This document shows, in pieces, positions 20,589 to 45,010 of a DNA stretch of 64,000 nucleotides (its first letter is position 1; each line of letters opens with the position of its first letter). The translations under genes were made by a program, and so were the position numbers. The notes under the pieces are model-generated. The model saw only the letters and a program-made list of their open reading frames with translations, was not told the origin of the DNA and did not search any database. The stretch is from the NCBI GenBank assembly GCA_963843795.1, contig CAWJLW010000006.1, positions 496,001-560,000 of the forward strand. Reading direction: 5' to 3'. This DNA is from an uncultured bacterium (GTDB lineage Bacteria > Armatimonadota > Abditibacteriia > Abditibacteriales > Abditibacteriaceae).

Positions 20589-20630
20589 GTTTTTGTATCT
20601 CCTGTTCTGCGCGCAAGTACTTGCACGCGG

Positions 20631-21096: not shown

Positions 21097-21115
21097 GTTT
21101 GTTTCCTTTGAGCTT

Positions 21116-21580: not shown

Positions 21581-21624
21581 GAAAATTATTTTCCTTTCCA
21601 AGTACGCCCGTTTTCGACCGTACT

Positions 21625-23070: not shown

Positions 23071-23092
23071 AAGAACTCCCTTGGAAAAACGA

Positions 23093-24483
23093 TTATTCCG
23101 CGTCGCCGTGCGTGAGTTTGTAGCCCGCCGCTTTCCACGCTTTCATGCTGCCGGGAACATTTTTCACCTGTTCAAAGCCTTGCTGCTGCAAAACACTGGC
23201 GGCAATCGAAGCGCGGTAGCCGCTGCCGCAATACACCGCGAGGGGTTCGATCTTTTTGAGCTTCTTGGAGTACTCTTCGACTTTGGGCACAAAAGCGTGC
23301 TGCGCTCCGGCGATAAATCCTTGGCTCCATTCGTCATCGGCGCGCACATCGAGAATCTGCACGTCATCTTGCTTTTCCTTCAACTCCTGCACGCTCATCT
23401 GCTCCAGCTTCACGAACGGCATTCCGGCCTCGAACCAGCCGCGCATGCCCTGACGCAGAAAGCCAGCGATGTTTTCGATGCCGATGCGCAGCAGGTGGCG
23501 CTGCACTTTATCCAAATCGGCTTCGTTGTCGAGCACCAGCAAAATCGTGTCTTCGGGCTTGAGCATCCAACCGCTCCAGACCGGAAACTCGTCGCGCAAC
23601 GCGATGTTCATCGCGCCTTCGATGTGGCCGCCGCCAAACGCTTCGATTTCGCGCGTATCCAGAACCAGAGCGTTTTTCTCTTTGGCGGCATCGGCGAACT
23701 TTTGCGGGTCGAGCGGCTGCACGTTGGGCAGACAGCCGAGTACTCCCGCGCCCTGCGGCATTGACTTTTTTCATGCGCGGATAATAGGTCGGCGCGGGCG
23801 GCAAATCTTTCAAAACCGCCTTGACGAATTCGTCTTCGCTTTTCAGTTGCGCCTTCTCCTGATGCATGTCGCTCGTAGCCGATGGTCGAAGTCAGGCGGT
23901 CGCCGATGTTACCGCCGCAGGGCGAGCCGGAGCCGTGCGCCGGATAAATCTCGACTTCATCGCCCAGCTTGAACAACTTCTCGTGCAGCGAATGAAAAAG
24001 TTTCTTCGCCAATTCTTCTTCGCTGCCGCCGCCGATCAGATCGGGCCGTCCGACTTCACCAGCAAACAGCGTGTCGCCGGTGAAAACGCCCCAGGTTTTC
24101 TTGGAGCCTTTGCCGCCTTCAATCGAAAGCGAAATGTGTTCGGGCGTGTGGCCGGGCGTGTGAAGTACTTGCAGCGTCACCGCACCGAGTTCAAAGGTCT
24201 CGCCTTCTTTGGCCTGATGCAGCTTGAAGCCGTAATCTTTGGACACGCCGCCCACGATTTGCGCGCCGGTTTGCGATGCCAGTTCGCGCGCTCCCGAAAC
24301 GAAATCGGCGTGGATGTGCGTTTCGAAGATGTGCGTGATGCGACAGTTGTTCTGGCGCGCGATGTCGATGTAAATCGAAACATCACGGCGCGGGTCAATC
24401 ACGGCGCACACGCCCTCATCGTCATCGCCCACGACATACGAAAGATGCGCCACGCCTTTGGTTTCAATAGTTTCCAGTAACAT
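23093..24483 (-). CDS. MBL-fold persulfide dioxygenase-like protein fused to two rhodanese domains (frameshifted)
   Basis: ETHIHADF, TPGHTPEH, GDTLF, PAHG..CG; rhodanese YCGSGYRA in 23093-23761. Confidence 0.85.
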
Positions 24484-24494
24484 AATTTTTCCTT

Positions 24495-25292
24495 TTAATT
24501 AATGAGTTGAAGTGCAGCGGGCACGTTGGCAAAAGCCAGATACGCCGCCACAGCGAGCGCGACAGCCGCGAAAGTTTTTTCCAGAGCGCGGGCCGGAACT
24601 CGTCCGGCGAAGTTCAAGCCGCCCCACAATCCCAGCAGCGCGGCGACAGTCAGCGCGGCAGCCAGCGGCAACAATCCGCGCACCGCTCCCCAGTGAGCCG
24701 CGAAGCCCGCCACCGAATTGAAAGCGATGATGCCCAGCGAAGTTCCCGTCGCCAGCTTCATGGTTTGATGGGCGAAGCGGCGCAGCGCGGGCACCAGCAG
24801 AAATCCGCCGCCAACGCCCAAAAATCCGGTCAGAATCCCCACGCCCCAGCCCGCAAAAGCGCAGCGTCCAGTGCGGCATTCGTTGTCGCAAAGCGCTTCC
24901 TCAGCCCCGCCGCCGCGCCACATTTTCAGACCAACCGTGAATAGCAAGGCCGCGAACAACAACAGCAAAATCGGTGACGGCACGAGCGGTGTCAAGCGCG
25001 CGCCGATCACTGCCCCGACGGCTCCCGACAGCCCGAAGAGCAAAAGCGCACGTCCATGAACTTCGCCGTTGCGCGCTTTGATGGCGGCTCCGGCCAGCGA
25101 AGTCAATCCGACAATCGGCAGCGAAAGCGCAATGGCGGCGGCAGCGGGCAAGCCGAGTACGTAAACCAGAATCGGCACCACGACAATCGAGCCGCCGCCG
25201 CCGACCATGCCGAGCAGCAGCCCAACAGCGACGGTGAGCAGTAGGCCTATTGCCAGTGCCGTGGGTGACACGCCGACCATAAGGTGGCTCAT
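24495..25292 (-). CDS. Sulfite exporter TauE/SafE family
   Basis: GGGGSIVVVP and GVGGGFLLVP repeats, ATGTSL, multiple TM segments. Confidence 0.9.
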   Translation of the reverse strand: MSHLMVGVSPTALAIGLLLTVAVGLLLGMVGGGGSIVVVPILVYVLGLPAAAAIALSLPIVGLTSLAGAAIKARNGEVHGRALLLFGLSGAVGAVIGARLTPLVPSPILLLLFAALLFTVGLKMWRGGGAEEALCDNECRTGRCAFAGWGVGILTGFLGVGGGFLLVPALRRFAHQTMKLATGTSLGIIAFNSVAGFAAHWGAVRGLLPLAAALTVAALLGLWGGLNFAGRVPARALEKTFAAVALAVAAYLAFANVPAALQLIN

Positions 25293-26341: not shown

Positions 26342-26387
26342 TGGAGCTGAGGGGATTCGAACCCCTGACCTCTTGAGTGCGATTCAA
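26342..26387 (-). repeat. att site (duplicated tRNA-Ala 3' half)
   Basis: TGGAGCTGAGGGGATTCGAACCCCTGACCTCTTGAGTGCGATTCAA identical to 44938-44983. Confidence 0.97.
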
Positions 26388-26559
26388 ACATCTCATATCG
26401 CTCCCAATTCCTTTTTTTACGCACTCGATAGGCGCTTTAAGACCGCTGTTTTTGATTAGTCAAGATCTATTATAGTAGGTCTAAAACGACTTGGCTACTG
26501 GCTGAACGCCCATGAGTTTAATCCTCGCCACAGGATCAACCTCGTTCACGCTGCCGTCC

Positions 26560-26818
26560 TTAAAGAAGAAATACAGGAGGCCTTAATGAGCAATGGAAGA
26601 TATTCTGAAACTCTGACTTCAGAGATTTCGTGGAGATAAATAGAGGAGCAGGAGCATTTAACAGAAGACCAGCACTGTGTCCGGCATCCTCGAAGGTGAC
26701 AATGAATTCAGTTTTCCCTTTCTTCGTGGTGACGTTCGTACTGGGTGCGGAGGGACGTGCCTTCGACCTGATGTTCACTGGATACTCGAAGGTATCGGAC
26801 TGCCTTTAATGTTTTCAT
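26560..26818 (-). pseudogene. Truncated, frameshifted serine recombinase N-terminus
   Basis: ATG 26818: MKTLKAVRYLRVSSEHQVEGTSLRTQ, then in another frame KGKTEFIVTFEDAGHSAG. Confidence 0.7.
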
Positions 26819-27297
26819 CTTTCGCTCCTTTTTAATTCTTCATCGGTCATCAGACGAAGACCTTTGTCTTGATTTTCGAATTGCCACATCTGCACAGCTT
26901 TTATCTTTGATGGGATGTCAAGTTCATCTTCTCCTTTGAGATATTTGAAGAAATATCCGGCGGAGAATTCTTTGTCAGAAAGAACGGCATTGAGGGCCCA
27001 TTCGAGTCTTGATTGGAGTTGTTCATCTCCTTGAAGAGAGAGAGGTTCTTCTGTCCGGCGGGAATATCCGGCCAAAGCGGAAATTTCTTCCGCATCAACG
27101 CCATACGCATCCGCAAATTTCTTCAATGTCGGCGGTGTCGGCATTTTGTGTCCACACTCAATTTGCGAAAGATGGGGCACGCTGCTTAAACCGATCTTCT
27201 CGACGGCCTCGGCCTGATTCATCCCCAGCGACTTGCGTATTTCCCGTAGCCGCTGTCCAAGACGCCGCCGCTCTTCATCACTGCCATGTCTTCTCAT
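26815..27297 (-). CDS. XRE-family HTH transcriptional regulator
   Basis: LGQRLREIRKSLGMNQAEA..HLSQIECG..P; GGAGG before ATG 27297. Confidence 0.9.
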   Translation of the reverse strand: MRRHGSDEERRRLGQRLREIRKSLGMNQAEAVEKIGLSSVPHLSQIECGHKMPTPPTLKKFADAYGVDAEEISALAGYSRRTEEPLSLQGDEQLQSRLEWALNAVLSDKEFSAGYFFKYLKGEDELDIPSKIKAVQMWQFENQDKGLRLMTDEELKRSER

Positions 27298-27495
27298 CAA
27301 TACCTCCCGCATTTCCCAGTATTATACCCTATGTTATATCTTATGCAAGGCCTAAATCAGATGAAACAAAAATAAACCTTGAAATCTGGTCTAAAATGAG
27401 TCATAATAGATAAATAAGGTGAATAATTTTGCATATTATGGCCTGTAATAAAACTTAGTTATACTTCAATTACTTATTAAAGTGGAGGTGAAATC

Positions 27496-27684
27496 ATGAA
27501 ACAAACCAAAGCTATCCTTAGCGGCACAATTGTCGACACGGCAGAGAGGGTTCGAGAGAAGTCTGGTCAGGAGAGAATTATCAATTTGATCCGCGCACTT
27601 CTTCTTCATCTGGACAGCGTTTCCGGCGATGAGAATTTCAGCATCGCGGACATCGAGTTGAAAAAGAGAACCGTTGTAGGATGA
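27496..27684 (+). CDS. Small hypothetical protein divergent from the XRE regulator
   Basis: Strong GGAGGTG RBS; Cro-like position. Confidence 0.55.
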   Translation: MKQTKAILSGTIVDTAERVREKSGQERIINLIRALLLHLDSVSGDENFSIADIELKKRTVVG

Positions 27685-27819
27685 ACTCAACTTTCCGGGA
27701 AATGTCGTTCGCCTGTGGAAAATCTTTCTTAGTAGCCAATTCTTCATTGACTTTAGTGAGAACATACAATACGTTACCGGGGTAACAAAAAAGCCCCGCC
27801 TTTTGGGCGGAGCTAACTT

Positions 27820-29933
27820 ATGTCTGAGGCAGCGACAACTCCCTCAGATGTAGTTCCATCTGTAGCTACAGAATTTTTGAATGCAAAATCACAACATGAA
27901 ACACAACACGAGATTAACATGAAACATTATACATCAACAAAACATGAAACGCAAATTATTGAGCACGATAACGATATTGAAATCACAATTTCGATGTTCG
28001 ATAGCGTCAAGGACAACCAACCAAAACAAAGCACCAGAAGGTGGAGTGAATTCTCTAAGAATTAGAGAAGTTTGTATTACCTCGCCTTAACTCCGGGGAT
28101 AGAGACGAAGACAAAAAGAAGGAAAACTTCGGTGTTCAACTTTACTCCGGGGTTTCCTACGAGAAGAATGCTCCGCGTAACAATGAAACAGCGGAGATGG
28201 TTTATATTGCCGCCGCTGACATAGATGACGGCCTCTCCTTCGAGGAGGCCATAAAATTGTCTCGTGGGTTGGAATGCCATATCTATACCACCTACAAGCA
28301 TTCTGCAGACTCTTCCAGACTCCGTATCGTCTATCCATTAGCCAGACCAGTACCAGCGGCAGAATGGCCCCAGATGTGGGATCGATTCAATGAAATGCAT
28401 GGAAATAGAATTGATTCCGCAACAAGAAATGTTTCTCGAATCTTCTTTCTTCCATGTCGCCATGAAGGAGATGTAGATTCAAGAAGTGAACCTTTTCACG
28501 GCCCCCTACTCGACCTGTACGCCCTGCCAGAGGCTAAAACGATAGATGTGTCATCCAAACCCCGAGAGGCTCGTGGAGAGGCTCACAGGGCCCTTAACGT
28601 GGACGATGAAGTCAATGATGTTGATATTGAAAAGATTGATAGAGTTTTTAAGTCTATATGGGACAAGAGAATCAAAGCCGGGGGTTCAGAAGACAAAGTG
28701 AATGGTTCTGATGCCGATTACTCGGTTCTTCGTTCGTTGACAAAGAAAGGTGTATCCTTCTCAGCTATTTTTAAAGGATTCGAAAAGGATTCCCATCCCG
28801 GACATTACAGAAAGATGATGACGCAGGGAAAACACGTTCAAGCGAGAAGATATTTAGAACACTCTTACATTAAAGCATTGGCCGAACCTGATACTCCAGA
28901 ATTCATTGAAAGTCTTTGTGAGACCAGAATCCTGACCTCAAAACTTCATCAGGCGGCGGAAAACATTGATTTTGATAGTAAAAGAGCAGCCAAGACTTTA
29001 CTGAAAGTCCTTCAAGCACACATCACAACGTTTAGCAAAACAGGTAAAGATTCATGGAATTTGTCAGTAAGAGAAGTCAAAGAAATTGCTTCAATCAACA
29101 GCATCACTACCGTTTCAAAAGCACATTACAATTTAAAGAATACTTTCAAAGTGTTAAATTGTTCAGGCCCTAGAAATGAAAAACGTTACTCTTTTACTCG
29201 CGAGTTCTTAGAACTCGTTAACAGTATTGAACTCGAAGAACAAAACGAAACGTTAGAAGATCATACTAACACATCCAGAGAGAATTCTTCTGATGTGTTA
29301 GTATGTGCGTTTAACGTTTCAAATACAGATTTCGTCGTTGGACAAACCCAAACCTCTGGTGTTTTCGAACATACTCGACGCGGCGGTCTTGGTGACAGTG
29401 CTGAAAGAGTTTATGTTGCTTTGATGAAATATGGGCCTTTGACTCTCGATGAACTTTCAGAAAAAACCAAACTTCTAAGAGCTACTGTCCGCCGAAGTGT
29501 AAGTGGAGTCTGTAATCGAAAAACTGGTGAACTCAAGACTCCTGGATTGGAGTTTTACGGTATTGTTACGGAAATCGGTGGTGTGGTTACTGTGAATCCT
29601 GACTTTGATTTCAAGTCTCTGGCTATTGATTTAGGTGTCGATGGAATTAAAGAAATTCGGGCCAAGAAACATCGAGATGAACGACTTATCCACCGGCAAA
29701 ACTTTAAAAACTTTAAAGAAATGCGCCGTCGAGAAAAGCTACTGGGAAACACTACTATGCCGTATAATACCGAACTTATCCCGGATTCCATCGAGCGTAT
29801 CCTGTATAATACCGAACAAATCCCGGATTCTACCGAGCGTATGCCGTATAATACCGAACAATTCTCGGATTTTACAGAGCATATCCCGTATAATATCGAA
29901 CAAATCCCGGATTTTATAGAACATTCTCGATGA
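27820..29933 (+). CDS. AEP-type primase/replication protein with wHTH (frameshift near 28,055)
   Basis: ADIDDG, IYTTYKHS..RLRIVYPLARPV, D.ATRNVSRIFFLP; the main frame is open from 28059 and continues the 27820-28065 ORF; GPLTLDELSEKTKL..VRRSV HTH. Confidence 0.7.
29757..29924 (+). repeat. 8 x 21-bp (4 x 42-bp) imperfect tandem repeat at the 3' end of the rep gene
   Basis: ATGCCGTATAATACCGAACAA-like and ATCCCGGATTCTACCGAGCGT-like units alternate. Confidence 0.9.
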
Positions 29934-31788
29934 ATCCGGGAATGATATTCGAGAGTCACTATCAGATAATTCCTGTGATAGGAAAAAATCAGCAAATTTT
30001 GATTTAGAATTGATGGATTCGGATATCTCCGTATCCTAACCGATAGAGGATACGGGGATAACAAATATCACAAATCAATAAATATCGAACCCAATGCGCC
30101 GATGGCTTTCACGGAATATGGCCCGACATCCCTATCCCTCTAGGCGGCGGATTCTTGGCACCATAAAAATAATTACGTATCTCAGACCGCACACAACTAC
30201 TATTTATTCGGTTGATTTGTTTGATTTCATACAAGAGAATGAAATAGTCGTCAAGACGGTTAATGATGGGAATACGTTTTATGTCGTGGATTGGAGTGAT
30301 CTAAGAACTGCCGGATATTGGGTGGAGATTGTGAGACCGATACAGATATTCTCAACAGATATTCTCAGTAGAGATTTCGATGTGACACCACAGCATTTAT
30401 CCAGATAACTGGCACGGTCTCATAAATCCCATAATGACTGCAAAAAACGTAAGAGAAAATGAAACCGATTTTCAGATAGCCAGTCTATATAATTAAACAG
30501 CGCATTTACAGGGAGATTTTAATGACTAGCACAATGAACAATACAATGAACAACACAACAAGCAAACCAAAGAGCACAGCAAGAAAAAAAGAAAAGTTGA
30601 GTTCAATCCGAAGTATCCGTACCACACTGACTACGCGCCTTATTCAAGGCAACACGATTTTCGCCGTAGCGGCTCCGGACTTCAAGACTATGGAGAAAGC
30701 CGTTGGAAGAGTTCTATCTTGAGAATGACGATGTGGACTTTGAAGGCAACGAAGACTTCTACATCATCGCTGACTTAACGACTGTCAAACAATGACTGCA
30801 AGGAGAATGTTGGTCTTTCCCGTCACGATGGACGCTCTGGTAGAGTCTACGTAGCACCGGTGACGATACTGAATATATCCGGCTCAACAAGTTTTTCACT
30901 CCCGTGCAGAATCTGGCTGACATCGAAAATCAATTCATCGCCGGAGAAACTGGCCTTCTCTTTTTCTTCGAGGAGTATGACCGGCAAACAAAGACGGTCT
31001 CTGGGCCGAATTTATCGCATGGGTGAAAGTAGTTGAAGCCGAAATGGCTGCTGACCGGATGCAGATGAAAACGATGTCAACTCTATTCAATGGCTACTTC
31101 CTCCGTTCCTACGCCGTCGAGATTCCGACGCTGCTGAACCGCTGTCGAGGTTCCCGCTGCCAGGATTTCCGTCGCCGAAGTTGAAGTCGAGGAGGAGATT
31201 CCCTTTGCTTATGCAGTGGTAGATGAAAATGGAATCTTTGTGGGATGCGTCAGACTCTTGATGATGTTTCCGAATGCGTCCGTGATTTCTACGGGAACAC
31301 GGCACCGACACGCTAATCCACATCCGACTCAAAGGGCATTCTCGATACGACTCTCTTGCCAAAACCGGCTCAAACCATCAGGCCGCATGAACTGCCGCTA
31401 TGCCCCCTGTTGGGGCTGCAATGATAGATAAATTCTTAGTAACTCACGGAAATAAATTCGAGACCACTACGCCATATTTTCGGATTCTGGATACCGCTCT
31501 TCCTTAGAAACCGGCAGTACCTGCTGCCCAATGACAGGAGGCTCTCTGGAATGGGCAAGTGAAAATTTTCAAAATTTATTTTTACTGGGACAATCTATTT
31601 GAAGGTTAAATGACCTTCGATTGGCAACAATGCGGTGTTCTGTCGATGACAGCCTAATGTCAGTGGCCAAACCTTCTATAGATATTAGTCGATTCTTCTC
31701 GGACTCCATGTTCAATGTCGCTAACTCATGTTCAATCGTGCCGGGAGTTAACTGGGACTTGGCAGTACTCAGCGAACCTTTATAGTGG

Positions 31789-32170
31789 TGACCTTGTCCC
31801 CGAGTTCATACCAGTTGTGAGTGGAGAGTTCCGGCTGTGGTTTGTTGTTTTGACCGACATCGCTGGCGGTAAATTGCCAGCGCCTGTGCGGTCTGACCTG
31901 ATTATAACTTTCGCGCCATTTCTCGATGGAATTCTGGCTTCTCGCAAGCTGGTGAACCATTCCAAGTTCAAGCATTCATCGCGTAGCTTGCCGTTGAACG
32001 ATTCAACCTTACCGTTTTGAGTCGATTAGCCCGGTTCGATAAAGTGCAACTTGACTTGATATTCATACGCCCACTGGTCGAGGACGATGCCTCGGAACTC
32101 CGCACCGTTATCGACCTGAATCCATACTGAAAGCCAGAGGACATCTTGTCAAATGGATTCACACGCGGTA
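31789..32170 (-). pseudogene. Degenerate IS3-family remnant (orfB 3' part plus terminal IR)
   Basis: [30 protein letters not shown] in broken frames; TGACCTTGTCCCC end at 31789. Confidence 0.85.
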
Positions 32171-32337
32171 CCGGTCGCGACCCACGATAAATGCTAAAAG
32201 TGCAGATCGCGGAAAATATGCAAATCTCGCCACTTTCCAGGGATATTTAAATGTAGAAAAGCCGTACACGCCATTTTAAGCCGTCGAATCAAGCTGGATG
32301 ACACCAAATCCCATCCGAACTGACCTTCTCCCCAAGA

Positions 32338-33183
32338 TTAGTCCGCTTTCAGTGAGAGTTTTTCGGCGTGTTGTTGTGCCCAGACAACGGGCGGCAAGTA
32401 GTTCAGACTCGAATGCGGCCTGAGGGTGTTGTAATCTTCGCGCCACGCTTCCAAAGTGCTTCTGGCGTCTTGGAGATCGGTGAACCATTCTTGGTTCAGG
32501 CACTCATCGCGGAGTTTGCCGTTGAATGATTCGATGTAGGCATTCTGTGTCGGTTTGCCGGGTTCTATGAAGTGCAGACCGACGCGGTTATGATGTGCCC
32601 AGGTATCCAGCGCCCGCCCTCGGAACTCCGGACCGTTATCAATTTGCAAGGTTTGTGGCTGGCCATACTGATCGCATAAGCGTTGGAGCACGCGCACCAC
32701 ACGTTCTCCAGTCAACGAGGTGTCGACTTCGATGGTCAAACAGCGACGATCAAAAGCATCTACGACATTCAAAGCCCGAAAGCGCCGCCCGCAACTTAGA
32801 GCATCGCTGACAAAGTCTAAAGTCCACAGCTGGTTAGCCGCAGTTGGTGCTGCGCAGGGCACACGGAGTTCACTTTTCAAGCGTCGTCCCCGTTTGGGAC
32901 GCAACTTGAGACCGTCTTCTCGATAAAGTCGGTAAACCTTTTTGTGATTGATGAGCCAGCCTTCGCGTCGCAACAAAACATGTAAGCGCAAGTAGCCAAA
33001 GCGTGGACGTTCGGCAGCCAGCTCTTTGAGACGTTGTCGTAAAGCCACCTCATCAGAGCGCTTGGAACGATAGCGAATGCTGGCGCGGTGACTACTTGTC
33101 AGGGCGCAGGCCCGCCGCTGGGAAAAGTTGTGTTGGATTTGCAAATGCGACACAGCTTCTCTTTGTGCAGCGGGCCTCACCAT
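32338..33183 (-). CDS. IS3 transposase OrfB (DDE)
   Basis: [39 protein letters not shown]. Confidence 0.95.
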
Positions 33184-33443
33184 TTTTTTGAGAGCAAGTC
33201 CTTCAATGCAGCGATGTCGAGATGACTTTCGGCCAGCAACTTCTTCAAACGGGCGTTTTCGTCTTCCAGAGCTTTGAGGCGTTTGGCTTCGCTGACTTCC
33301 ATGCCACCATACTTGCTCTTCCAGCGGTAATAAGTTTGTTCGCTCATACCGTGCTCACGGCACAGATGCGCGACCGTGGCACCGGCTTCGGCTTGTTTTA
33401 AGATGCCAATGATCTGTTCGTCGCTAAAACGGCTTGACTTCAT
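33177..33443 (-). CDS. IS3 transposase OrfA (HTH)
   Basis: [32 protein letters not shown]. Confidence 0.95.
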
Positions 33444-33517
33444 CGCAGTTCTCCTCAACTCAATTTTAGCCGGAGAACTCCCACTCTGTTTGGACTAATT
33501 TACGGGGCGAAGGTCAG

Positions 33518-33990
<473 letters not shown>

Positions 33991-35910
33991 TGGCGGTTTG
34001 ATTTCGTTGTGGAACCGTTTTCCGTTTTACCAAAGGCAATGGCACGAGGTCTTCAACGGAAATTTTCCAGTAGGAGATGTTCTCAGGAGCAAATTCTGCG
34101 TTGCCAGATGCCGTAGGTGAAGTTGGTTCCGGGAGCGTAAACGGCAGGGTCGGGAAGGTTTCCTGAGGTGGCTTTACGCGGCGTTGCTTTTGCGGTTTAG
34201 GCCGTTTTGTTGAGCTAGACACAAGGCCGGGGTAGTGGAACAGAGAAGCTCGTGAAGCTCGTGTCGTTTGGACAATTTCCCTTAGCCGTGCCAGTGAATC
34301 TGCATCGAGCCGTTCATCGTGTTCGCGGAAGAATTGACGGAGCGCTTCGGTCACAACTTGATAGTCAGTGAACCGGCAGTCTCCCAATTCATAATGTTTT
34401 TGTTTGATTGCCACATGGCGAATGAACTCTGCTTCACCATTAGGATTGGGGCCCCACTCATGTTCCGTGAGTTTGATAATGACGGTGATTTGTTCTGGTG
34501 GGAGTAGAAGATCGAAGGGGTCTGAGAGATCACTCTGCCGATTTTTTCCATCCGATACACCTTCCTGCGCCGGTTCTGGTTTGGGCTCCAACGTCTCCTT
34601 GAGCGCCACTTGCAATAACGCTTCGGCTTGTTCCTTGCCTTCCCGAATGTTGGATTCCAGTTGGTCACAGAACGCCATGAGAGTGTCCAGTTTTGCCACG
34701 ATGCGCTTTTGTTCGGCTAGAGGTGGAAGTGGCAAGGACAAGGAGTAGATCTGGTTCCTTGTTACATTATTCATTGAAGTACTTTTTCCAGTGCTTAGTG
34801 AATTGTAATAGTTCGCACCAAAATCCGAATTGTTAAACATCCATAGAAGTGCCGGAGTTACAAACTCACTGAAATTGAAGCGGATGGTCTTATCACTTAA
34901 AAGTAAATTTTTCGTAATGTGCTTCACAATACAACATTTACCAGCCAAACCTTTCGAACCGCTTGCCCGGCAAAAGAGAAAGTCACCAATCTTTACCTGT
35001 TTTGAAATATCTTTTGGTTCGGCTGTTGAAAAGTATTTGTTCGCATTCTCCGAGAAATAACCACTAGTTATTGAGCTTGTCTTCACTATTCCCCATTCGT
35101 TTGAGTCAGTTGCTCTTTCAGAACATTTGAAACTATTTCCGGCTTCTGACAACAATACAACCTCACCCAACCTACACCACGTCCAAGTACTCGGAATATC
35201 GAACGGCACTTCATCGGCGGCGATGACAGGCAATGGTTTATCGCGTTTGATTTTCTTGGCCGCAACGAGTTGTTCCTTCTCGGCTTTGATACGTTCCAGA
35301 AGTAATTCGGCGGGTTCGTCCGCTTCATTTTGCGGCACCAGTTGGCCTTGCATCGCTTCCCGCAAAAACGCCTGACGAAGTTGTCGCACTAATTCGAGTT
35401 GGTTACAAAGCTCGGCTGTATTTTTTGCTACTCTTTCTTTCGTTGCAAGTACTTGGGTAGCGACTTCAATCTGCTTATTTAACGGCGGCAAACTGATTTC
35501 CCATGCCAAAACATCAGAAGGCCGGATAGCTGCATAGTTCGTGGAGCCTTTGGCTTTAATCTGGTCTTGAAGAATTGTTGTCTGGCAAATAACTTCGAGA
35601 AAGTCTTGTGCTATTTTCTTGGTATCTAATTCAAACAAATAATAATGGCTGCTGACGATTGCATCTTGCAGTTCTACGGGAACGAAAACGTAGCCACCAA
35701 CCTTAGCATCCATTTCAGCGACAATAAAATCATTTGCTTTGCAAAGCTGTTGTTTCTTAGTGCGGAGATCCGCACCTTTTTTTCGCTCACGCAATACAAC
35801 ACCTTTACGATGAAGTTGCACTCTACAGAGTTTGTATTCTTTGTCGTCCGATATGGTGATGAAACCTTTCCGGTGATTTAGAACGTCGCCGAGCTTCACT
35901 TTCTCCCAAG

Positions 35911-37560
35911 TCATAACACTTCCTGCCTCATCTGCTCCAGCAAACTATGACTCTTCGAAAAGCTCTTCTCGAGCATTGCCATCAACTCTTCACTGGTGTA
36001 TTCGTGCGTTTCTTCCTGCCGGCTTGGGTTTTTGATGTCCAAATCAAACGCGGCGAAATAGATGCTATCAGCCCTATTTCGCTCTTCTCTTGCAGTCTGT
36101 TCCAGTTGGAAAGAATCATTCTGTAAGATTGTCTTCTTTTTGAGTAAAACCTCCCTGTCGTGCACGTTCGCCACGTTTTTTAGTCGGGAGTTGATGTGAG
36201 AAACTTCTTGCTTAACTCTCGCGTTCTGCTGGTCAATTTCCTCAGCATTCTCCCAGCGGGGTTGTGCCTGGGATCTCGCTTGGACAATCCTCTGTCCTAT
36301 ATTGACTTTCCAGCACACTTCCGACTCGGTGTGGTTGTTCCACCAATCACGAATCGGCTGAAACTCTTCCAATCGGATCGGTCTGGTTTTGCTGTAACTC
36401 TTTTGGCCTTCGGGTAAGCGGTGTTCGTAATACCAGACCTCATTCGTCGGTTTGCCTTTTTCAAAGAACAACAGATTGGTGGCGACCGTAGCGTAAGGCT
36501 GAAACACACTGTTGGGCAAGCGAATAATCGTGTGCAGATTACATTCGCTTAATAGTCGTTCGCGAACGCGCTGCTTCACACCCTCACCGGTCAGGCTGCC
36601 ATCGGGTAACACGATTCCGGCCCTCCCGCCCATTTTCAACAGATGGATCATCATGACCAGGAATAAATCGGCGCTTTCTTTAGTGCGGAAGTTTTGCGGA
36701 AAATTGTTCTCATTGTTATTGGCGACAATGCCACCAAAGGGCGGATTGGCCAGAATCACATCGACACGGTCTTTCTCGGTGTAGTTGGCCAATGGCTGGT
36801 CTAAGGCATCGCGAAACGTAATGTTGGGCACTTCGACATCATGCAAGATTAAGTTTGTGGTCGCCAGTAGAAACGGCAGCGGCTTATATTCCCAGCCAAT
36901 GACGTTGTTCTGAATCCAGCGCAAGGTCTCGATATTAATGTTCTCTTTACCGAGATGTTCAATCGCACCCGTCAAAAAGCCACCGGTGCCACTGGCGGGG
37001 TCGAGAACACGTTCACCAAATTTCGGGTCGACCATTTCGGTGATGAACTGGGTGATGGCGCGTGGCGTGTAGAACTCGCCGGATTTTCCGGCGCTCTGCA
37101 AATCCTTCAGAATGCTTTCGTAAAGTTCACCAAAGGTGTGCCGATCCTTAATACTGTTGAAATCAAGTTCGTTGAGTTTATTGAGGACTTTGCGGATATT
37201 GATTCCGCTTTTCATGTAGTTGTTGTTGCCCTCGAACACTTCGCGCAGAATCAGGGCGCGTTTGTTCTCCACGACTGGGATATTGCGGAGTTTGGGAAAC
37301 AACTCGTGGTGAACGAATTTCAGCAACTCTTCGCCAGTGATGCCTTCATCATCACCCGCCCACTGATCCCAGTGCAGTTCGGGAGGTATCGGCGATTTGT
37401 AATGGGCGTTGAACTCTTCAAGTTCTTGGTCTTTGTCCGAGAAAATCTTGAAAAACAACATCCAACCCAGTTGTTCGATACGCTGGGCATCACCGTTTAA
37501 ACCGGTGTCCTGCCACATAATATCCCGAATTGATTTAAGAACGCCCTGTATATTAGCCAT
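35911..37560 (-). CDS. hsdM: Type I RM N6-adenine methyltransferase
   Basis: GEFYTPR, DPASGTGGF, NPPF. Confidence 0.95.
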   Translation of the reverse strand: MANIQGVLKSIRDIMWQDTGLNGDAQRIEQLGWMLFFKIFSDKDQELEEFNAHYKSPIPPELHWDQWAGDDEGITGEELLKFVHHELFPKLRNIPVVENKRALILREVFEGNNNYMKSGINIRKVLNKLNELDFNSIKDRHTFGELYESILKDLQSAGKSGEFYTPRAITQFITEMVDPKFGERVLDPASGTGGFLTGAIEHLGKENINIETLRWIQNNVIGWEYKPLPFLLATTNLILHDVEVPNITFRDALDQPLANYTEKDRVDVILANPPFGGIVANNNENNFPQNFRTKESADLFLVMMIHLLKMGGRAGIVLPDGSLTGEGVKQRVRERLLSECNLHTIIRLPNSVFQPYATVATNLLFFEKGKPTNEVWYYEHRLPEGQKSYSKTRPIRLEEFQPIRDWWNNHTESEVCWKVNIGQRIVQARSQAQPRWENAEEIDQQNARVKQEVSHINSRLKNVANVHDREVLLKKKTILQNDSFQLEQTAREERNRADSIYFAAFDLDIKNPSRQEETHEYTSEELMAMLEKSFSKSHSLLEQMRQEVL

Positions 37561-38842
37561 TGAAATGGTTCTTCAAGTAGTTAGTCTTCTCCTGCAAAGA
37601 AAGCTCTTTGATGTACTCCTCTTCATCAGTGAGTGGCCGAGATGAGTTTAAATTGCGAACTAAGAGTATGTCCTGACCCTTAGCCAGGAATCGTGTTGGA
37701 ATTTGACGTGCTTTGCACTTCACCATGCAAACAGATTTTCCATAGGGAGATAGGGCGATACATGTCTCCAAGGATCGCCCTGGCAATGGGCTGAGGTGGG
37801 CGTTAATCTTATTAGAAAATGTTTAGAGGAACTCGTTGTTGGATTTAAAGTTTTCTAGCTCTTCAATGCCTGTGATTTCCCCATTGTCCTCGACGCCAAT
37901 GAGAAGAATCCCGCCATCGGTATTAAGAAAACTGGCAATCGCTCTCAATGGCTTGAGCCACATATCTGTTTTGTCTTTTTCGTGTCTGCGCTTGAGAGAT
38001 TTGAACTCACAGTGTGCTCCTTCTCCATTCCCAATATGCTCTTGCACCTCTGCAAGTGCTGCATCTCCTTCCTCAAAAGCACGGATGTATGCGAGTGCAA
38101 CGGAAGCGTCTTTCTCCAACTCGGCAAACTCACTTTTGTAAGATTCTGGTTCGCCGCCATAAATAAAGGTGTTGCCAATCGTCGCAGTAAGAACAGCATT
38201 TGCGAACTCACTTGGAGAACACTTGTTCTTTGCCAGCATTAAAGCCGGGAGGAAAACCTGAGAGTGCATGTTGTGCAAAAAGATGGTAACGACCTTGCGG
38301 TGTGGGGGGAGTGCATCAAACTCACTTCGAATGAAGTCAATGAACTCGCGCGATGGCTTTGTTAAAGCGGTGTTTTCTTCATCTTCATCATCATAAAGCC
38401 ACCCTGCGCCAGTGAACACTAACTGGGGTAAATTCTGATTGTTAGCACGCAAGTAATCACTAATAAAGCCGTATCGGTTAAGCTGCTGCATAGCTATGTC
38501 CGGCCCTGGCGCGATGTAGAGCGTCGGGTCAGAACAAAGTTCTGCGTCGAAATTTTCTGTGAGCTTATCTGTTCCTGTCTCAAAAGATTGCTTCTGAGTC
38601 GCGTAAAGAGCGTATGCGGAGAACTTTCTTGGCTCAGTAATTACCTGGTTCTCAAGAGTAATTGAACCCTCTGATTCGAGTTCAGATAGCATATGATTCA
38701 GCAATTGCGGGTAGTAATGCCGAATCTGATGGCCTTGTGAGGTAAGTATCGGCTGATCTTCGTACACAAGAAGATATTCCTTCCCATCCTCAATTACCTC
38801 CAAATCAATTGGGTCTATTTTGATCGAGTCGCTCTGTGCCAT
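37553..38842 (-). CDS. Schlafen/AlbA_2-domain protein with ATP12-like N-terminus (frameshift near 37,823)
   Basis: GEGAHCEFKS..IASFLNTDGGILLIGVEDNGEITGI; continuation VRNLNSSRPL in 37553-37786. Confidence 0.8.
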
Positions 38843-38889
38843 TACTGCCTCCAGTACCAGTGTTGCTTGAACTAATGTTGCCTGAACTA

Positions 38890-41285
38890 AGCGGCCTTGT
38901 AGAGTTCGTCTTCCAATTCTCTGACCGCTTCAAAGTACTTGTCTCTACCACCGAAAATACGTTTACGATTTCCAGACGAGAGCCGAACTGATTGAAAGGA
39001 ATCGCATTCAATACGTCCAGACTTTCGATGTTCTCAATGCCTTCATCAGCATATTTATCGAGCAGGGCTTCCAACACTTGCCGCGTCTGTTCGCCATATT
39101 TGGCAAAGTAGTTCCGCTTCTTTACGTTGTTGGCGCGTTCACTGCGTGTCAATGGTGGCTGGTCAAACGCGACGTGACAGATCAAATCGAACAAGTCCAA
39201 TTTTTTATCTACCGAATCCAGAAGTTCGTCGGCCATAATGCCTTGCTTTTCGAACTCCTTGATGATGGTTTCTTTTTCTCCGACTCATTCCATTTGTTGA
39301 GGAAATCACTCAGTGTCGCGTACTGCTCGGTCACGATTTCCCGCGTGTAATCGGTCAGTTTGCGCGTAATCAATTTGCCGTCTTTGCTGAATGAGAGTTT
39401 GCGCGATATCAGAACCGACACATCCACGCCATTCACGACGACCTTCTGGCGCGGAACCGAATCGCCACCAGTATCGGGCTGGCGAATTTTGGGTTTTTCT
39501 ACGGGGATTTCCTCGCCGGTTTCCTCATCGACAATCGGCGTGTCGTCGGCTTCCTCTTCACCGAGAATAGTACTCGATGTCGTCATCTTCCGCAACTGTC
39601 TTCACGCGAATCGGGTCACCGTCAAACGCTTTATCGGCAAACAAGTCGGTGGCATTGCGAAAATCGAGAATTGTGAAATAGTGTTTGTTATAAGCCTCGT
39701 TAATGCGCGTGCCCCTGCCGATGATTTGCTTGAACTTGGTCATCGAGTTGATGTTCTGGTCGAGAACAATGATTTTGACCGTTTGTGCATCAATGCCGGT
39801 CGTCATCAATTCCGAAGTCGTCACAATCACCGGAAAAGTTTCTTCCGGATTGGTGAAGTTATCGAGTTCTTTCTTTCCCAAGTCGTTGTCGCCGGTAATC
39901 CGCATCACGTATTTGTGATTCTGGGCGGCAATATCGCCATTCTGGTTCACCAGTTCGCTTCTCATTCCTTCGGCGTGTTCGATATCGCAACAAAACGCAA
40001 TCGTCTTGTCGTAGCGATTGGAGCCATGAAGAAATTCGGTTATCTTCTGCGCCACCAGTTTGCGCCGTTCTTCAACCACCAGTTTTCTGTCGAAATCGCT
40101 GCGATTGTAGATGCGGTCTTCGACGAGCGTGCCACTTTTATCCTTGAATCCTTTGGGAGGTCGCCATCCTTCGGCATCTATATCCAGAGTAATCCTGATG
40201 ACGCGATAGGGAGCCAGAAAGCCATCATTGATGCCCTGTTTCAACGAGTAGGTGTAAATCGGTTTTTCAAAGTATTCACTGGTACTGATGTCATTGGTTT
40301 CGGTTGGCGTTGCGGTTAAACCAATTTGCGTGGCGGCATGGAAGTACTTCAAGATTTCTCGCCACGCGGAATCGTCACGGGCACTGCCGCGATGACATTC
40401 ATCGACCACAATCAGGTCAAAGAAGTCGGGCGTGAACTGTTTATAGATATTCTGCGCTTCTTCCGAACCTGTAAGACCCTGATACAGCGCCAAGTACACC
40501 TCATACGCTTTATCGACCTGATGCTTTTGCACCACGGTCATGGCTCCCTTGAAGTGCTTGAAATCTCCGCGCCGCGTCTGGTCAATGAGGGCGTTTCTAT
40601 CGGCCAGAAACAAGATGCGTTTCTTCGCGCCGGATTTCCACAACCGCCAGATAATTTGAAAAGCGGTGTAAGTTTTGCCGGTACCGGTCGCCATCACCAG
40701 CAGAATGCGGTTCTGCCCTTTGGCGATGGCTTCCACCGTGCGGTTGATGGCGATTTGCTGATAATAACGCGGCTTGCGACCGCTGCCGTCGTCGTAATAA
40801 TCCTGCTCGACGATTTTTTCTTCGTCCTCGGTGACAATACCTTTGTGTTGTTTATATTTAGTCCACAATTGCTCGGGTGTGGGAAAGCTATCGTTATCCA
40901 ACTGCGTTTCGATATTTCCGCCCATGTTCCCGGCGGACATGGTTTTATCGTGAAACAGGAAACCATCGCCGTTGCTGCTGAACACAAAAGGAATCTCCAG
41001 AATCTGCGAGTATTCCAATGCCTGTTGAAGTCCCGAGCCGATGGAATGCTTGTTGTCCTTGGCTTCGATGATGGCAATCGGGATATTGGGTTTGTAATAC
41101 AGAATATAGTCGGCGCGTTTGCCTTTGCCGCGGGAATGCAACTTACCGCGTACGTAGATTTTGCCGTCTGTAAATGAGACCTCTTCCAAGAATTGCGTAT
41201 TCTTATCCCATCCCGCTTTTTCCACCGCGGGTGTGATGAATTTGGTGCAAATGTCACGTTCAGACAACGATTTTTTATCGAGCAT
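38890..41285 (-). CDS. hsdR: Type I restriction subunit, EcoEI-like, split over three frames (3' end approximate)
   Basis: [36 protein letters not shown]-terminal [21 protein letters not shown] in 38805-39236. Confidence 0.93.
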
Positions 41286-41352
41286 GGCAGGAATTCTCGC
41301 AGCAGGGGGCAGTACACAGATTTTTGAGCGGGACTGAAATGTAGTCGAATGG

Positions 41353-41412
41353 TATTCGTGCGTCCATTATTCGTGAGTACATTATTCGTGCGTCCATTAT
41401 TCGTGAGTACAT
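41353..41412. repeat. 4 x 15-bp tandem repeat upstream of hsdR
   Basis: TATTCGTGCGTCCAT and TATTCGTGAGTACAT alternating. Confidence 0.9.
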
Positions 41413-41489
41413 TATAGGTCTGAATTCAACTCGACCGGAAGCCAAAGCAGACGAGGCGCAACAACTGCGCCCCGTCTGACTTTCCGCTT

Positions 41490-42300
41490 TTAGATATCAC
41501 AACCCGCCCTCAGAATCCGGTTGGCGGCGCTGAAAATGCGTTGCGCGGATTGTTCGGGAATGTCTTCACCGGTATTCCACCAGTGTTGGAATATAGCCCC
41601 GGCAGTAGTCGGAGCCGGGAAGCTGCAAAGTTTCGCAGAGCAACATCGCCACGGCTTCGGCTTCAACCTCCTTCAGGGCGCGGGGCAAAATCGCGCTATC
41701 GCTGCAATCGCTCTTCAGTGTGTGCCCTAGAACTACATGGGTTATCTCGTGAAATAAACTCTTTTTGGGAAGTTGTGCTATGGAAGAAACCGCCACACTG
41801 CGACCAGTGGCAAAACCCTGACAATTTCCATCAGCATGATGAAAGGGCACTTCCTGAATGTCCAGAGCGGCTAAGGCGCTGGCTTTATTCCAATCGGCTG
41901 TGAACGGCTCCGGTTGATATTCGGTTCCATCGTGTTTGCGTCAGAACGAACCAATGCGATTTCCACATAAACCCGCGAATGAATTCTTGCGCATCCTCGT
42001 TTGAACCTGTCGCACCATCGCGTTTAGCTTTGGCCAGTGAGCGGCATACAAAGCGTAATCGCCTTTTGCCCTTTCTGCACGTTGCGGCCCAGAGCTTTCC
42101 AGCCCTTAAACGTATTGATCGGCCCTAAAGCAATGCCCCGCTTATCACACTGCCACGCGGCGGCCATGCAGTTGCCCAAACTGTAATTGTGGAAAACGCT
42201 ATACGCTTCCAACAGCTTTCCCGGTTCGTTACACGGCTTTGCGCAGCAGTTGCGCCCACTGCGGGTTTACCCCTTCCGTCAGTTCATTTACACTTTTCAT
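41490..42300 (-). CDS. ArdC-like antirestriction/ssDNA-binding protein (several frameshifts)
   Basis: FHNYSLGN..TFKGWKALGRNVQKGQKAI; FHEITH..EVEAEAVA; AQRIFSAANRIL. Confidence 0.8.
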
Positions 42301-42368
42301 CTGAGAGACCTCCGTTTCTCAATCTGAGGCTCAGGGGTGTTGGTAGCACTCCTGAGCCTTTTCGCTTT

Positions 42369-42536
42369 TTAAGCGGCGATTTTCATTTCAATGTCCGATT
42401 CCCACGGCTGGAAAATTTCCTTCATCAGTTCTTCATCAATCAATCCCGTCGCAAAAAGTTCCGGAATCGTGAGAACGTTGAATGGGTTTTGATAGGTTTC
42501 TGTGTCGTAATCGTAAATGGCTGTTGGCTGGTTCAT
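42369..42536 (-). CDS. Small acidic protein (55 aa)
   Basis: GGGGAG RBS; MNQPTAIYDYDTETYQNPFNVLTIPELFATGLIDEELMKEIFQPWESDIEMKIAA. Confidence 0.65.
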   Translation of the reverse strand: MNQPTAIYDYDTETYQNPFNVLTIPELFATGLIDEELMKEIFQPWESDIEMKIAA

Positions 42537-42568
42537 TTCAGTGCTCCCCGTGCTGATTTCTATACTAT

Positions 42569-42598
42569 ATTATAACCTATCTGATAGGTTATTGCGAA
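42569..42598 (-). promoter_or_regulatory. Sigma70-like promoter overlapped by palindromic operator ATAACCTATC-T-GATAGGTTAT
   Basis: TATAAT on the minus strand at 42569-42574; inverted repeat 42572-42592. Confidence 0.65.
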
Positions 42599-42668
42599 GG
42601 GGAGGCAGCACAAATCTCGCTGTATTTTCAGCCTTTTTTTAAGCATTTAAGTTGATTTTCAGAGGTTG

Positions 42669-43358
42669 TTACTGCGCAGAATTTTCTCCGGAATCGTTGG
42701 CCAAAAATCGTTTGGCTTTGATTTCCAGGGCCTTATTGGTGAGGTTGTTGATGGCGTTATCCAGAGCATCGGTAGGTGTGACATCAATCTCAGGGATTAT
42801 CTCTTTTCCCTCTTCCAAGGCTTCGTGCACCATATCGAGAGAGCCTATCGCGGTATCCACGTATTCCAACATTTCGTCTAACAGTTGGCTATCATTCAGT
42901 TGGTTATCATTCAGTTGGTTATCATTCACGGATGACGCCTTACCATCAGTATTTTTCGTAGTGGCCGACTTGCTTTTGGCTTGTTTTCTTGACATGGTAG
43001 CGGCTTCTTTCCTGCTTTCCGTTAGGAACTTCTTAGCTTTCTCAAGTGGCAACTGGCGGCGCGTGATCTTGCGAACCCGCTTGACCATCTCTTGATCGCC
43101 ACGTCCAGCGGCAAAGTCGGACAACAGTTTATGTTTTTTCGAACTATTACAGGAACCACAACAGGCGATTTGGTTTTGTTTTCCTTTGGCTCCTCCCCAG
43201 ACTTGCGCCAGAATATGATCAATCGAAACGTTGGCCTTCTTCAGGTCGCAGCCGCAGTAAGGGCACGTCCAATCCACACGCATACAATGTGCAATTCTCT
43301 CCGCTGGAGTGCATTCCCCGCCCTTGTTTCCGCTGTATGTTTCGCAACGTTTCGGCAT
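42669..43358 (-). CDS. HNH endonuclease-domain protein with acidic tail
   Basis: CPYCG..SIDHI..GG..NQIACCGSCNSSK. Confidence 0.85.
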   Translation of the reverse strand: MPKRCETYSGNKGGECTPAERIAHCMRVDWTCPYCGCDLKKANVSIDHILAQVWGGAKGKQNQIACCGSCNSSKKHKLLSDFAAGRGDQEMVKRVRKITRRQLPLEKAKKFLTESRKEAATMSRKQAKSKSATTKNTDGKASSVNDNQLNDNQLNDSQLLDEMLEYVDTAIGSLDMVHEALEEGKEIIPEIDVTPTDALDNAINNLTNKALEIKAKRFLANDSGENSAQ

Positions 43359-43395
43359 CTTTTCCCTTCACCCATCAATCACTGAACTGCTATTT

Positions 43396-43470
43396 ATTAT
43401 ACCAAACTGATAGGTTTTTACAAGGGCAAGAAGCAGGGAGTTTGAAAAAACTTATCAGATGGGATATAAT
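43396..43470. promoter_or_regulatory. Divergent sigma70-like promoters, each with AAC(C/T)TATCAG in the spacer
   Basis: Minus: TTGTAA-16-TATAAT (43423-43396); plus: TTGAAA-17-TATAAT (43442-43470). Confidence 0.7.
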
Positions 43471-43476
43471 CAGAAT

Positions 43477-43869
43477 ATGAGCACCGAAAACAATGATATG
43501 GACAAAAAGATGCGGGAAGTCATGTCGTATATTGGCAGCATCACCAGCGAGAAAAAGAAGAAAGCCTCTGCGCAAAATGGCCAATCAGGAGGACGGCCAA
43601 AAAAGCCGCTCAACGAAATTGATTGCACCTGCGGGGGCAGCGGTCTCGATCATCAAGCTGGGTGCTCTCGTGGCTGTGCTATTCGCTACGACAAAAGAAA
43701 GGGCTACCGCTGGAATAAAACTTTTGACAAACAACTATCCGCCACTTATTCAACGTGGATAGCGATCAACAAAAGTGAAGGAGCACTGACGATGAAACCG
43801 CCAATTCCCCTTCACTTATTTGGACTCTGTTACTTGCCACGTCGCTTGATCCGATCCACGGGTGAGTAG
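43477..43869 (+). CDS. Small basic protein with NG..GGRP motif and Cys/His cluster, possible DNA-binding regulator
   Basis: SEKKKKASAQNGQSGGRPKK, CTC..H..C; ATG 7 nt after TATAAT. Confidence 0.55.
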   Translation: MSTENNDMDKKMREVMSYIGSITSEKKKKASAQNGQSGGRPKKPLNEIDCTCGGSGLDHQAGCSRGCAIRYDKRKGYRWNKTFDKQLSATYSTWIAINKSEGALTMKPPIPLHLFGLCYLPRRLIRSTGE

Positions 43870-44846
43870 TGCCGGTGCTGAGTTTCAATATCTGTCTGTG
43901 CCAACAGGCAGTACTTTTGAGTCATCTGAATATTCGTGTGACCAAGCATCTCGCGCACACTGAAAACATTCGCCCCGTTCTTCAATGTCTCTACCGCAAA
44001 GGATCGGCGTAGAGCGTGAGGCGAACAGGAACCTTTGATTCCGGCACTTTTACCAAGTCTTTCCACCATTTGAAGCAGCCCCGAGCGGGTGAGTGGTTGA
44101 TTACCCCTGGCTGAGTAGAATAGTGGTGCATCCTCGTCTGAATGCCGGTGAACCTCTCGAATGTAAATCCAAAGGGCTTTGCTGGTCTCCCGCCCAAAGA
44201 AAACAGTGCGATATTTGTTGCCCTTGCCAAGTACGGTGCAGCGTCGGTTTTGTAGGTCTACATCCTTGAGCTGCAGGGAAATGCATTCACTCGCCCGACA
44301 ACCCGTGTCTAACAGCAACAGCAGGATAGCAACGTTCTTTTTCGGCGCAGTAGATTTTTGGGCCGCCTGCAGAAGAGCGTGTATTTGTTCCTGTGATAAT
44401 GGGGCTTTGATGTCCTCACGCACCTTTGGCTTGGGAATGCTCGTGAAGGGCGTCTTCTGAATCATTCCTTCAGCGACAAACCAATCGAACATGGTGCGAA
44501 GACAAGTGTGGTAGTCCTTGATCGATACGGGACGCAGAGGCCGGTTCAGGTGGTGCCTACCGAAACGACCGCCCGGCTCTTCATGGCCGTGCATCAGGTA
44601 GAGGAAGAACTGACGCAACTCAGGCAAACCACATTTCTGGTATCCCCGGTGGTTCAGGAACCACAGCAAGTTTTTGGTGAAGACCCGTTTTGATTCGAGC
44701 GAAGCTGGTGATTGAAAACGATATTCGCATTCAAAAAGCCAGTCCTGCGTAGCACGTTGTAGCTCTTCGATACTGAGGCTACAGGCATTTTCTGTGACTT
44801 TAGATTCCGTAAAGTTAAGAGGTGAGTCAGGTATTTTGCCCTCCAA
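43830..44846 (-). CDS. Tyrosine recombinase/integrase
   Basis: TGCRASE, GKGNK, HALRR, LGH, terminal Tyr; adjacent to tRNA att site. Confidence 0.95.
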   Translation of the reverse strand: MEGKIPDSPLNFTESKVTENACSLSIEELQRATQDWLFECEYRFQSPASLESKRVFTKNLLWFLNHRGYQKCGLPELRQFFLYLMHGHEEPGGRFGRHHLNRPLRPVSIKDYHTCLRTMFDWFVAEGMIQKTPFTSIPKPKVREDIKAPLSQEQIHALLQAAQKSTAPKKNVAILLLLLDTGCRASECISLQLKDVDLQNRRCTVLGKGNKYRTVFFGRETSKALWIYIREVHRHSDEDAPLFYSARGNQPLTRSGLLQMVERLGKSAGIKGSCSPHALRRSFAVETLKNGANVFSVREMLGHTNIQMTQKYCLLAQTDIETQHRHYSPVDRIKRRGK

Positions 44847-44936
44847 ATTTGAGTCTCAGAGAGCGCCTAAGGAGAAACAAAAAAGCGCAAATTCCCTTTA
44901 AATAAAGGAAAAATGCGCCTTCTGCATAAAACTGGA

Positions 44937-45010
<74 letters not shown>

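Follow-up and report, generated by a model that had tools for sequence, protein, structure and literature searches.

Why should a type I restriction-modification (RM) operon carry, between hsdR and hsdM, a gene in which a domain resembling Atp12, the F1-ATPase assembly chaperone, is fused to a nuclease domain of the Schlafen type? The gene in question (minus strand, 37553-38842) lies in a 64,000-nucleotide stretch of contig CAWJLW010000006.1 from an uncultured bacterium of the Abditibacteriaceae (assembly GCA_963843795.1, positions 496,001-560,000), here called the window. Its product combines an Atp12 fold with an intact nuclease motif, the gene is embedded in the operon and carried on a mobile element, and the family to which it belongs exchanges effectors and frequently has defence genes as neighbours. 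Judged from sequence and predicted structure, the fusion protein is probably a sensor-effector anti-phage RNase that rides in defence loci. As a class, Schlafen fusions have been established as tRNases that act against phage; most of their accessory domains lack an explanation.

An Atp12 fold joined to a Schlafen nuclease domain

The N-terminal domain (residues 1-258; 38069-38842, minus strand), the predicted sensor, had been likened to ATP12 by eye in the original prediction, and this likeness is borne out by a family profile, Foldseek and VIA, all of which reach the Atp12 family. Searches with the single sequence return no ATP12 match (Pfam, NCBIfam, PADLOC and phmmer against the PDB), and the ESM Atlas offers ATP12 as a lead only (0.81). 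A profile built from the query and 38 short relatives matches three PDB chains at E<0.001, all of them of the Atp12 family (2r6i, E 5.6e-10; 2zd2 and 2p4x, E 4e-7), over positions 14-210 of 259. With an AlphaFold model of the domain made from 104 sequences (predicted local distance difference test, pLDDT, of 93), all four Foldseek matches at E<=0.001 are Atp12 (E 3.4e-6), and VIA aligns Atp12 at Z 17.6 (root-mean-square deviation, RMSD, of 3.5 for 230 aligned residues) and 16.9, the next match standing at 3.7. The superposition takes in both the wrist and the hand domains of Atp12, at a structural identity of 10-14%. HHalign gives a probability of 96% for the match between the N-domain and a canonical-looking ATP12 (locus L116). 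The fusion protein has no match to PF07542, and among relatives of at least 200 amino acids 17 of 127 match this family at E<=0.05, one of them over the cut-off. The L116 gene (1098-1811) sits on a 3-kb contig in a genome of the Acidobacteriota phylum and may belong to a contaminant contig. Across 14 control genomes PF07542 matched in Deinococcus radiodurans and Caulobacter, one of the two above the cut-off.

To our knowledge Atp12 has a single job, that of holding F1-alpha during ATP synthase assembly. In the portion of PMC2719352 drawn on here, Trp57 and Asp202 (P. denitrificans numbering) are required for F1 assembly, and the last two Atp12 helices mimic the gamma subunit. Mapped through one canonical-looking ATP12 (that of L116) and the PDB profile, the W57 equivalent is L55 (column L 56, F 31 of 104 aligned) and the D202 equivalent is T219 (A 70, S 13 of 104), a position at the edge of the aligned stretch. 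The family has conserved motifs of its own (D105, GPE, H193 and CxxxEY), and the domain is strongly acidic (41 D+E against 19 K+R). Compared with Atp12/ATPAF2 (P. denitrificans 2P4X, 2R31 and 2ZD2; A. tumefaciens Atu1473, 2R6I), the whole fold is held in common, whereas the window family lacks W57 and D202, bears its own motifs, is fused to effectors and is patchy and mobile. The N-domain thus has the Atp12 fold but is not a canonical Atp12.

The C-terminal part (about residues 274-429; 37556-38023, minus strand) is an AlbA_2 domain, as originally proposed: the 339-residue open reading frame (ORF) that precedes an in-frame stop matches PF04326 at E 1.5e-10 (42 bits against a cut-off of 25.3; an intact homolog reaches 54.1 bits), and the part past the stop belongs to the same domain. 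The Schlafen catalytic motif is defined as Ex4(E/D)xK in PMC13056530, a source used here in part, its supplements through files 1-12 (one excepted), 20 and 21. In the window protein the motif is intact as E274-E279-K281 (Ex4ExK; 38000-38023, minus strand), and 64 of 64 aligned fusion sequences retain it. PADLOC returns a single weak pAgo-Schlafen match. The closest whole homolog, P0002, is 432 amino acids long, 57% identical end to end and open throughout; it has the same placement, hsdR-gene-hsdM-hsdS, in an Acidobacteriota metagenome-assembled genome.

Effector exchange and defence neighbours in the family

A phmmer search with residues 1-260 yields 156 representatives at E<=0.001, 150 of them listed. 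In a set of 151 proteins, 63 have the N-domain fused to AlbA_2, 43 consist of the complete N-domain alone and 31 are fragmentary or unclear; the other 14 carry a different tail (7 HEPN-type, 1 TIR, 1 Ser/Thr kinase, 2 truncated AlbA_2 and 3 unassigned). In the HEPN-type tails RNxxxH and Ex3K are invariant in 11 of 11 rows, which represent 7 proteins and 4 loci, two of the loci being near-copies of listed proteins; the HEPN signature is given as Rx4-6H with Ex3[KR] in the portion of PMC3710099 drawn on. A model of one such protein, P0053 (pLDDT 80.5, 11 sequences), matches Atp12 in its first half (Z 17.5) and in its second half LsoA (Z 10.0, RMSD 3.3 for 140 aligned residues), AF0298 (Z 9.8) and RnlA (Z 9.4). 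Many HEPN chains occupy ranks 3-16 of this structure search, the fold being helical and the single Z values moderate, and Foldseek with the same model finds nothing at E<=0.001. Structurally, the C-terminal domain of the HEPN-type relatives is thus best matched by LsoA and RnlA, both anti-phage HEPN RNases; these relatives bear an Atp12-like domain in place of the NTD/NRD domains. Two further proteins, P0085 and P0068, extend the ATP12-like-Schlafen arrangement by an adenine methyltransferase domain (E 8e-12 in P0085, weak in P0068), a direct fusion to RM-like parts.

In a FastTree phylogeny of 150 N-domains (midpoint root, no outgroup) Schlafen is the widespread partner, TIR and kinase each arise once, and HEPN is confined to one 12-row clade that includes three stand-alone members (support 98). 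Several stand-alone clades are well supported; the apparent stand-alones L074/L092 and L057 are split fusions. In L074 (569-1814), and likewise in L092, the N-domain and AlbA_2 lie in different overlapping frames, which may reflect a split gene or a recoding site.

The family is rare, patchy and mobile. It occurs in 0 of 60 relatives, and a single marginal match was found among 300 other genomes of the phylum of the window's bacterium. In the phylum of the Acidobacteriota host the N-domain profile, with 6 candidates scored per genome, matched in 4 of 401 genomes and gave 3 fusions, that host included; this profile was used in place of a full-length one, which over the same genomes was dominated by AlbA-only matches (130 of 401). 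Among relatives of that host 0 of 60 have the N-domain. A phage collection gave no match to the N-domain, plasmid matches cover AlbA_2 only (9 of 9), and viral contigs yielded 2 AlbA-only loci and 7 motif matches, all 7 false, with no N-domain found.

The surroundings of the family were read from a metagenome motif scan that returned 58 loci, 39 of them verified by the N-domain profile; 22 long loci are left once one duplicate and the 16 loci shorter than 3 kb are set aside. Neighbours comprise 167 ORFs within 6 kb, a set that includes the short loci, L001, L034 and L035, and were scanned against NCBIfam (91 proteins) and Pfam (96, of which 7 are family members); these context loci contain no clearly stand-alone member. 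A defence gene lies within 6 kb in 13 of the 22 distinct loci of at least 3 kb: type II RM (L103, L091), McrBC (L085), type I RM (L071), a Hhe/ProA-like helicase (L055), DGQHR (L070), Zorya (L096), GmrSD (L058), a DrmD-like helicase (L101), type III-like RM (L062), DUF499 (L051), PLD/DUF1156 (L061) and an Mrr-helicase (L053), with several of these labels scoring under their families' curated cut-offs. In the controls, 9 distinct loci of at least 3 kb out of 19 unverified ones (51 of 77 ORFs scanned), 1 of 9 has a defence locus (SMODS/ThiF). The expected enrichment of homologs in defence loci is therefore found, 13 of 22 against 1 of 9 chance-match controls (Fisher one-sided p 0.018, a value that overstates the case because the loci are partly related and the controls mostly housekeeping). 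Three of the four HEPN-type loci are among the 13, and the association is therefore not due to Schlafen alone. In L053 (2580-5196) two tandem ATP12-like-Schlafen genes adjoin the Mrr-helicase gene.

The architecture itself is already catalogued and not a first sighting. Supplementary Tables 1-2 of PMC13056530 list 'ATP12-like.pSlfn' as pSlfn30, with 2 members (WP_021761464.1 and WP_171267275.1) and a group defence score of 0.5, and the supplement holds a 'Rubredoxin-related.ATP12-like.pSlfn' entry, WP_163695853.1; the number of defence neighbours given for the three entries is 0, 1 (RosmerTA) and 4 (type I RM). Within the covered portion of that paper the architecture is present as table rows only, the main text never naming ATP12. 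Literature searches linking ATP12 to Schlafen, HEPN or phage defence, the reach of which stops short of supplements, showed nothing relevant among the papers listed. The pSlfn30 proteins share the domain order of the window protein, ATP12-like N-terminal to Schlafen, a likeness of architecture rather than of alignment to the listed accessions; L060 likewise shares with WP_163695853.1 the rubredoxin-ATP12-like-AlbA_2 order and a length of 458 amino acids, and for that entry PMC13056530 records type I RM inside a 10-kb range. The catalogue, as far as covered, comprises Schlafen fusions only, and HEPN, TIR, kinase and stand-alone forms fall outside it. New here are the ATP12-like domain as an exchangeable module common to Schlafen, HEPN, TIR and kinase proteins in defence loci, and a family that is rare and patchy and has lost the Trp and Asp critical to the chaperone.

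A putative infection sensor and its alternatives

We favour a switch against phage built into one protein: the Atp12-like domain would recognise a protein specific to infection, and its binding would turn on a nuclease that is predicted to cleave tRNA. The fold, which in Atp12 holds an unassembled subunit, would have been re-aimed at a new protein ligand, since Atp12 depends on two residues for F1 assembly and both are replaced here, and this ligand would most likely be a phage protein or an assembly intermediate. Binding would activate the nuclease, translation would stall and phage yield would drop, by analogy with RorSlfn5, which cuts tRNA, stalls translation and lowers phage yield (PMC13056530, in the portion used). 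RorSlfn5 (Schlafen-Ig-like) and EcoSlfn7 (DUF262-Schlafen) are likewise single-gene Ex4(E/D)xK nucleases with an accessory domain near defence genes (PMC13056530); the accessory fold differs, and in the window protein it is N-terminal. The sensor-effector design is strengthened because Schlafen is exchanged for a HEPN RNase, TIR or kinase, and the ATP12-like domain, found on other toxic enzymes and often beside anti-phage genes, is therefore likely a reusable infection sensor. More tentatively, the Atp12-fold sister family as a whole may be a general exchangeable bacterial immune sensor that takes hold of a phage-machine subunit not yet assembled, or of the host's free F1-alpha, and switches on whichever effector is fused to it. 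If so, an Atp12 sister family that has dropped the chaperone residues, is present in defence loci and is connected to two or more unrelated RNases would represent a new class of sensor, with consequences for the question of where the Atp12 fold originated; intact homologs are at hand in P0002 (Schlafen) and P0053 (HEPN).

PrrC of EcoprrI combines an ABC-ATPase with a HEPN anticodon nuclease within a type I hsd operon, and is said to guard RM, its nuclease being released on anti-restriction; the abstract of PMC3874168 sketches this mechanism, and PMC13056530 names PrrC in its discussion. The window gene likewise encodes a predicted RNase embedded in a type I hsd operon, with a Schlafen rather than a HEPN nuclease. 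In a corresponding role, the second option of the original prediction, the fusion protein would bind the type I RM complex, and its nuclease would fire once a phage anti-restriction protein disables RM. This would account for the coupled position within the hsd operons of the window and L001, for a separate capture in L071, where a member of a different subclade lies between hsdS and hsdR, for the end of hsdR directly upstream of the family gene in L072, and for the type I RM recorded close to the M. sarraceniae entry (supplement of PMC13056530). However, the window and L001 share their site and are sister sequences, hence a single event, the fusion protein has no ABC-ATPase domain, and the family extends beyond type I RM, which is found in only 1 of the 22 long loci (L071), the remaining neighbours being unrelated systems. 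The sensor-effector backup defence of the original prediction accordingly gains from the fold, the catalytic motif, the enrichment in defence loci and the exchange of effectors, whereas a dedicated RM guard of the PrrC kind, which we regard as unlikely, gains little because the relatives adjoin so many unrelated systems. Most likely the RM operon serves as a vehicle and as a second layer of defence rather than being what is sensed. Alternatively the domain may retain its ancestral ligand, free F1-alpha, the nuclease firing if infection or stress upsets the assembly of ATP synthase; conservation of the whole fold, including the last two helices used by Atp12, the acidity of the domain and a genome with an intact atpA (F1-alpha) in which no canonical ATP12 was found (completeness 92%) are in keeping with this, but the D202 and W57 equivalents are replaced, structural identity to Atp12 is as low as 10-14% and no atp genes occur among the neighbours scanned, and we consider such a guard of the host ATP synthase quite improbable.

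Several observations weigh against the anti-phage switch. Six of the 22 long loci have no defence gene and 3 are ambiguous (L074, L087, L089), and the share with defence genes, 59%, does not exceed the 69.6% given for prokaryotic Schlafens generally, a figure from a wider, 10-kb window (PMC13056530). Within the portion of that source used, one of the pair of pSlfn30 members lacks defence neighbours, and 2 of 7 Schlafen systems tested gave defence. No effector at all is present in the 43 stand-alone proteins, some of which form clades of their own. The N-domain varies no more than the nuclease does (between the two closest homologs 152 of 253 residues are identical, against 90 of 169), and in this it differs from the pSlfn5 sensor, which is more variable than its nuclease (PMC13056530, as far as used). 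In two Acidobacteriota genomes (G147 and G111) an ordinary operon places the fusion behind an FHA protein and a 5'-nucleotidase, and its third-position GC (GC3), 0.82-0.91, is like that of the neighbours; both fall in a 15-member clade mostly without the GPE motif, and this 5'-nucleotidase-linked clade is possibly domesticated to a non-defence role. Finally, the window copy has a stop and its hsdR three frameshifts. A conserved operon of zinc-ribbon/FHA, secreted 5'-nucleotidase and ATP12-like-Schlafen genes is seen in two Acidobacteriota genomes at L034 (7061-10529) and L035 (9563-12926).

Part of this evidence would also suit a protein that is not anti-phage, such as an RNase regulated by stress or by a metabolite, or a passenger that is dispensable and accumulates in variable loci. 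To the conserved FHA/5'-nucleotidase operon of G147 and G111, the loci without defence genes and the effector-less clades can be added the 30.4% of Schlafens without defence neighbours (PMC13056530, in the same portion). The swaps among Schlafen, HEPN, TIR and kinase effectors, the HEPN-type members adjoining Zorya, Hhe-like and DGQHR genes and the location of the window gene's own clade in hsd operons argue the other way, leaving a function outside phage defence a small chance. The sensor-effector switch remains the reading we prefer.

The window copy, its operon and its mobile element

The four genes are collinear on the minus strand: hsdR (38887-41285), with an EcoEI_R_C-type C-terminus and three frameshifts, the fusion gene, hsdM (35911-37560) and hsdS (33818-35914, homology reaching to about 34580). 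As first described, the fusion gene lies between hsdR and hsdM, and the hsdM start overlaps its final 8 nt; a GGAGG stands 5 nt ahead of its ATG. Translational coupling would co-express it with hsdR, hsdM and hsdS. The hsdS frame has a tail of about 250 codons past the HsdS homology (33818-34580), which has no Pfam match and ends near an HNH remnant.

The fusion gene had been described as frameshifted. This is incorrect because 429 codons read in one frame with an in-frame TAA at codon 340 (37823-37825, minus strand), the sole lesion, which would end the protein inside the Schlafen domain; the three frameshifts are in hsdR. The TAA may be a consensus error or a strain-specific nonsense change, and we think it probably a sequencing error. 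The assembly is error-prone, with two frameshifts in fusA and one in gltA (20 core-gene queries, 15 matched); assembly error was judged from named genes only, a genome-wide rate from relatives' genes being confounded by antisense ORFs. A 99%-identical fragment, P0153, has Glu at codon 340 and comes from a contig of 18,788 bp, the other pieces of which are frameshifted themselves, and the frame past codon 340 is still conserved. One sequencing run contains 0.09 of the words, its contigs covering the region in scraps and leaving codon 340 uncovered, and no RNA data set was listed as containing it. That this copy is a pseudogene in decay, within an RM island also in decay, would be compatible with any function of the family and is a real though somewhat less probable alternative: the nonsense codon and the three hsdR frameshifts make four lesions within 3.7 kb, a dense cluster, an IS3 insertion and the HNH remnant lie nearby, and the housekeeping matches show an in-frame stop only in one weak sdhA-like match. 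Against decay stand the errors in fusA and gltA, a 289-nt poly-A run 4 kb from the gene, the Glu of the near-identical copy that is broken at other places, and the conservation past the stop.

The poly-A run (33518-33806) is the genome's only long homopolymer and probably an assembly artefact; it is flanked by the HNH remnant (33810-34043, E 4e-4) and the single-copy IS3 (32338-33458). At 20600-24500 rhodanese, metallo-hydrolase and nucleotidase-like genes look split across frames, consistent with local assembly errors.

The operon is carried on an integrated element of 18,642 bp (26342-44983) bounded by 46-bp att repeats, one copy (44938-44983) within tRNA-Ala(CGC) (44937-45010, minus strand), the integration site, and the other (26342-26387, no strand assigned) an identical direct repeat of the 3' end of that tRNA gene. 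The element's tyrosine integrase (43830-44846, minus strand) lies beside the tRNA gene, and the GC content of the element is 0.46, against 0.53-0.54 in the flanks. The 18,788-bp ENA contig with near-identical pieces of the fusion gene is close to the element in length and may be an excised form. Also on the element is an ORF of 578 amino acids (28197-29933) with a C-terminal helix-turn-helix and a tandem peptide repeat at its end, the N-terminus of which we take, by eye, to be primase- or replication-like. A short ORF at 41566-41850, without a match in a Pfam scan, contains a HEITH motif and presumably, again by eye, resembles ArdC-type metallopeptidase domains.

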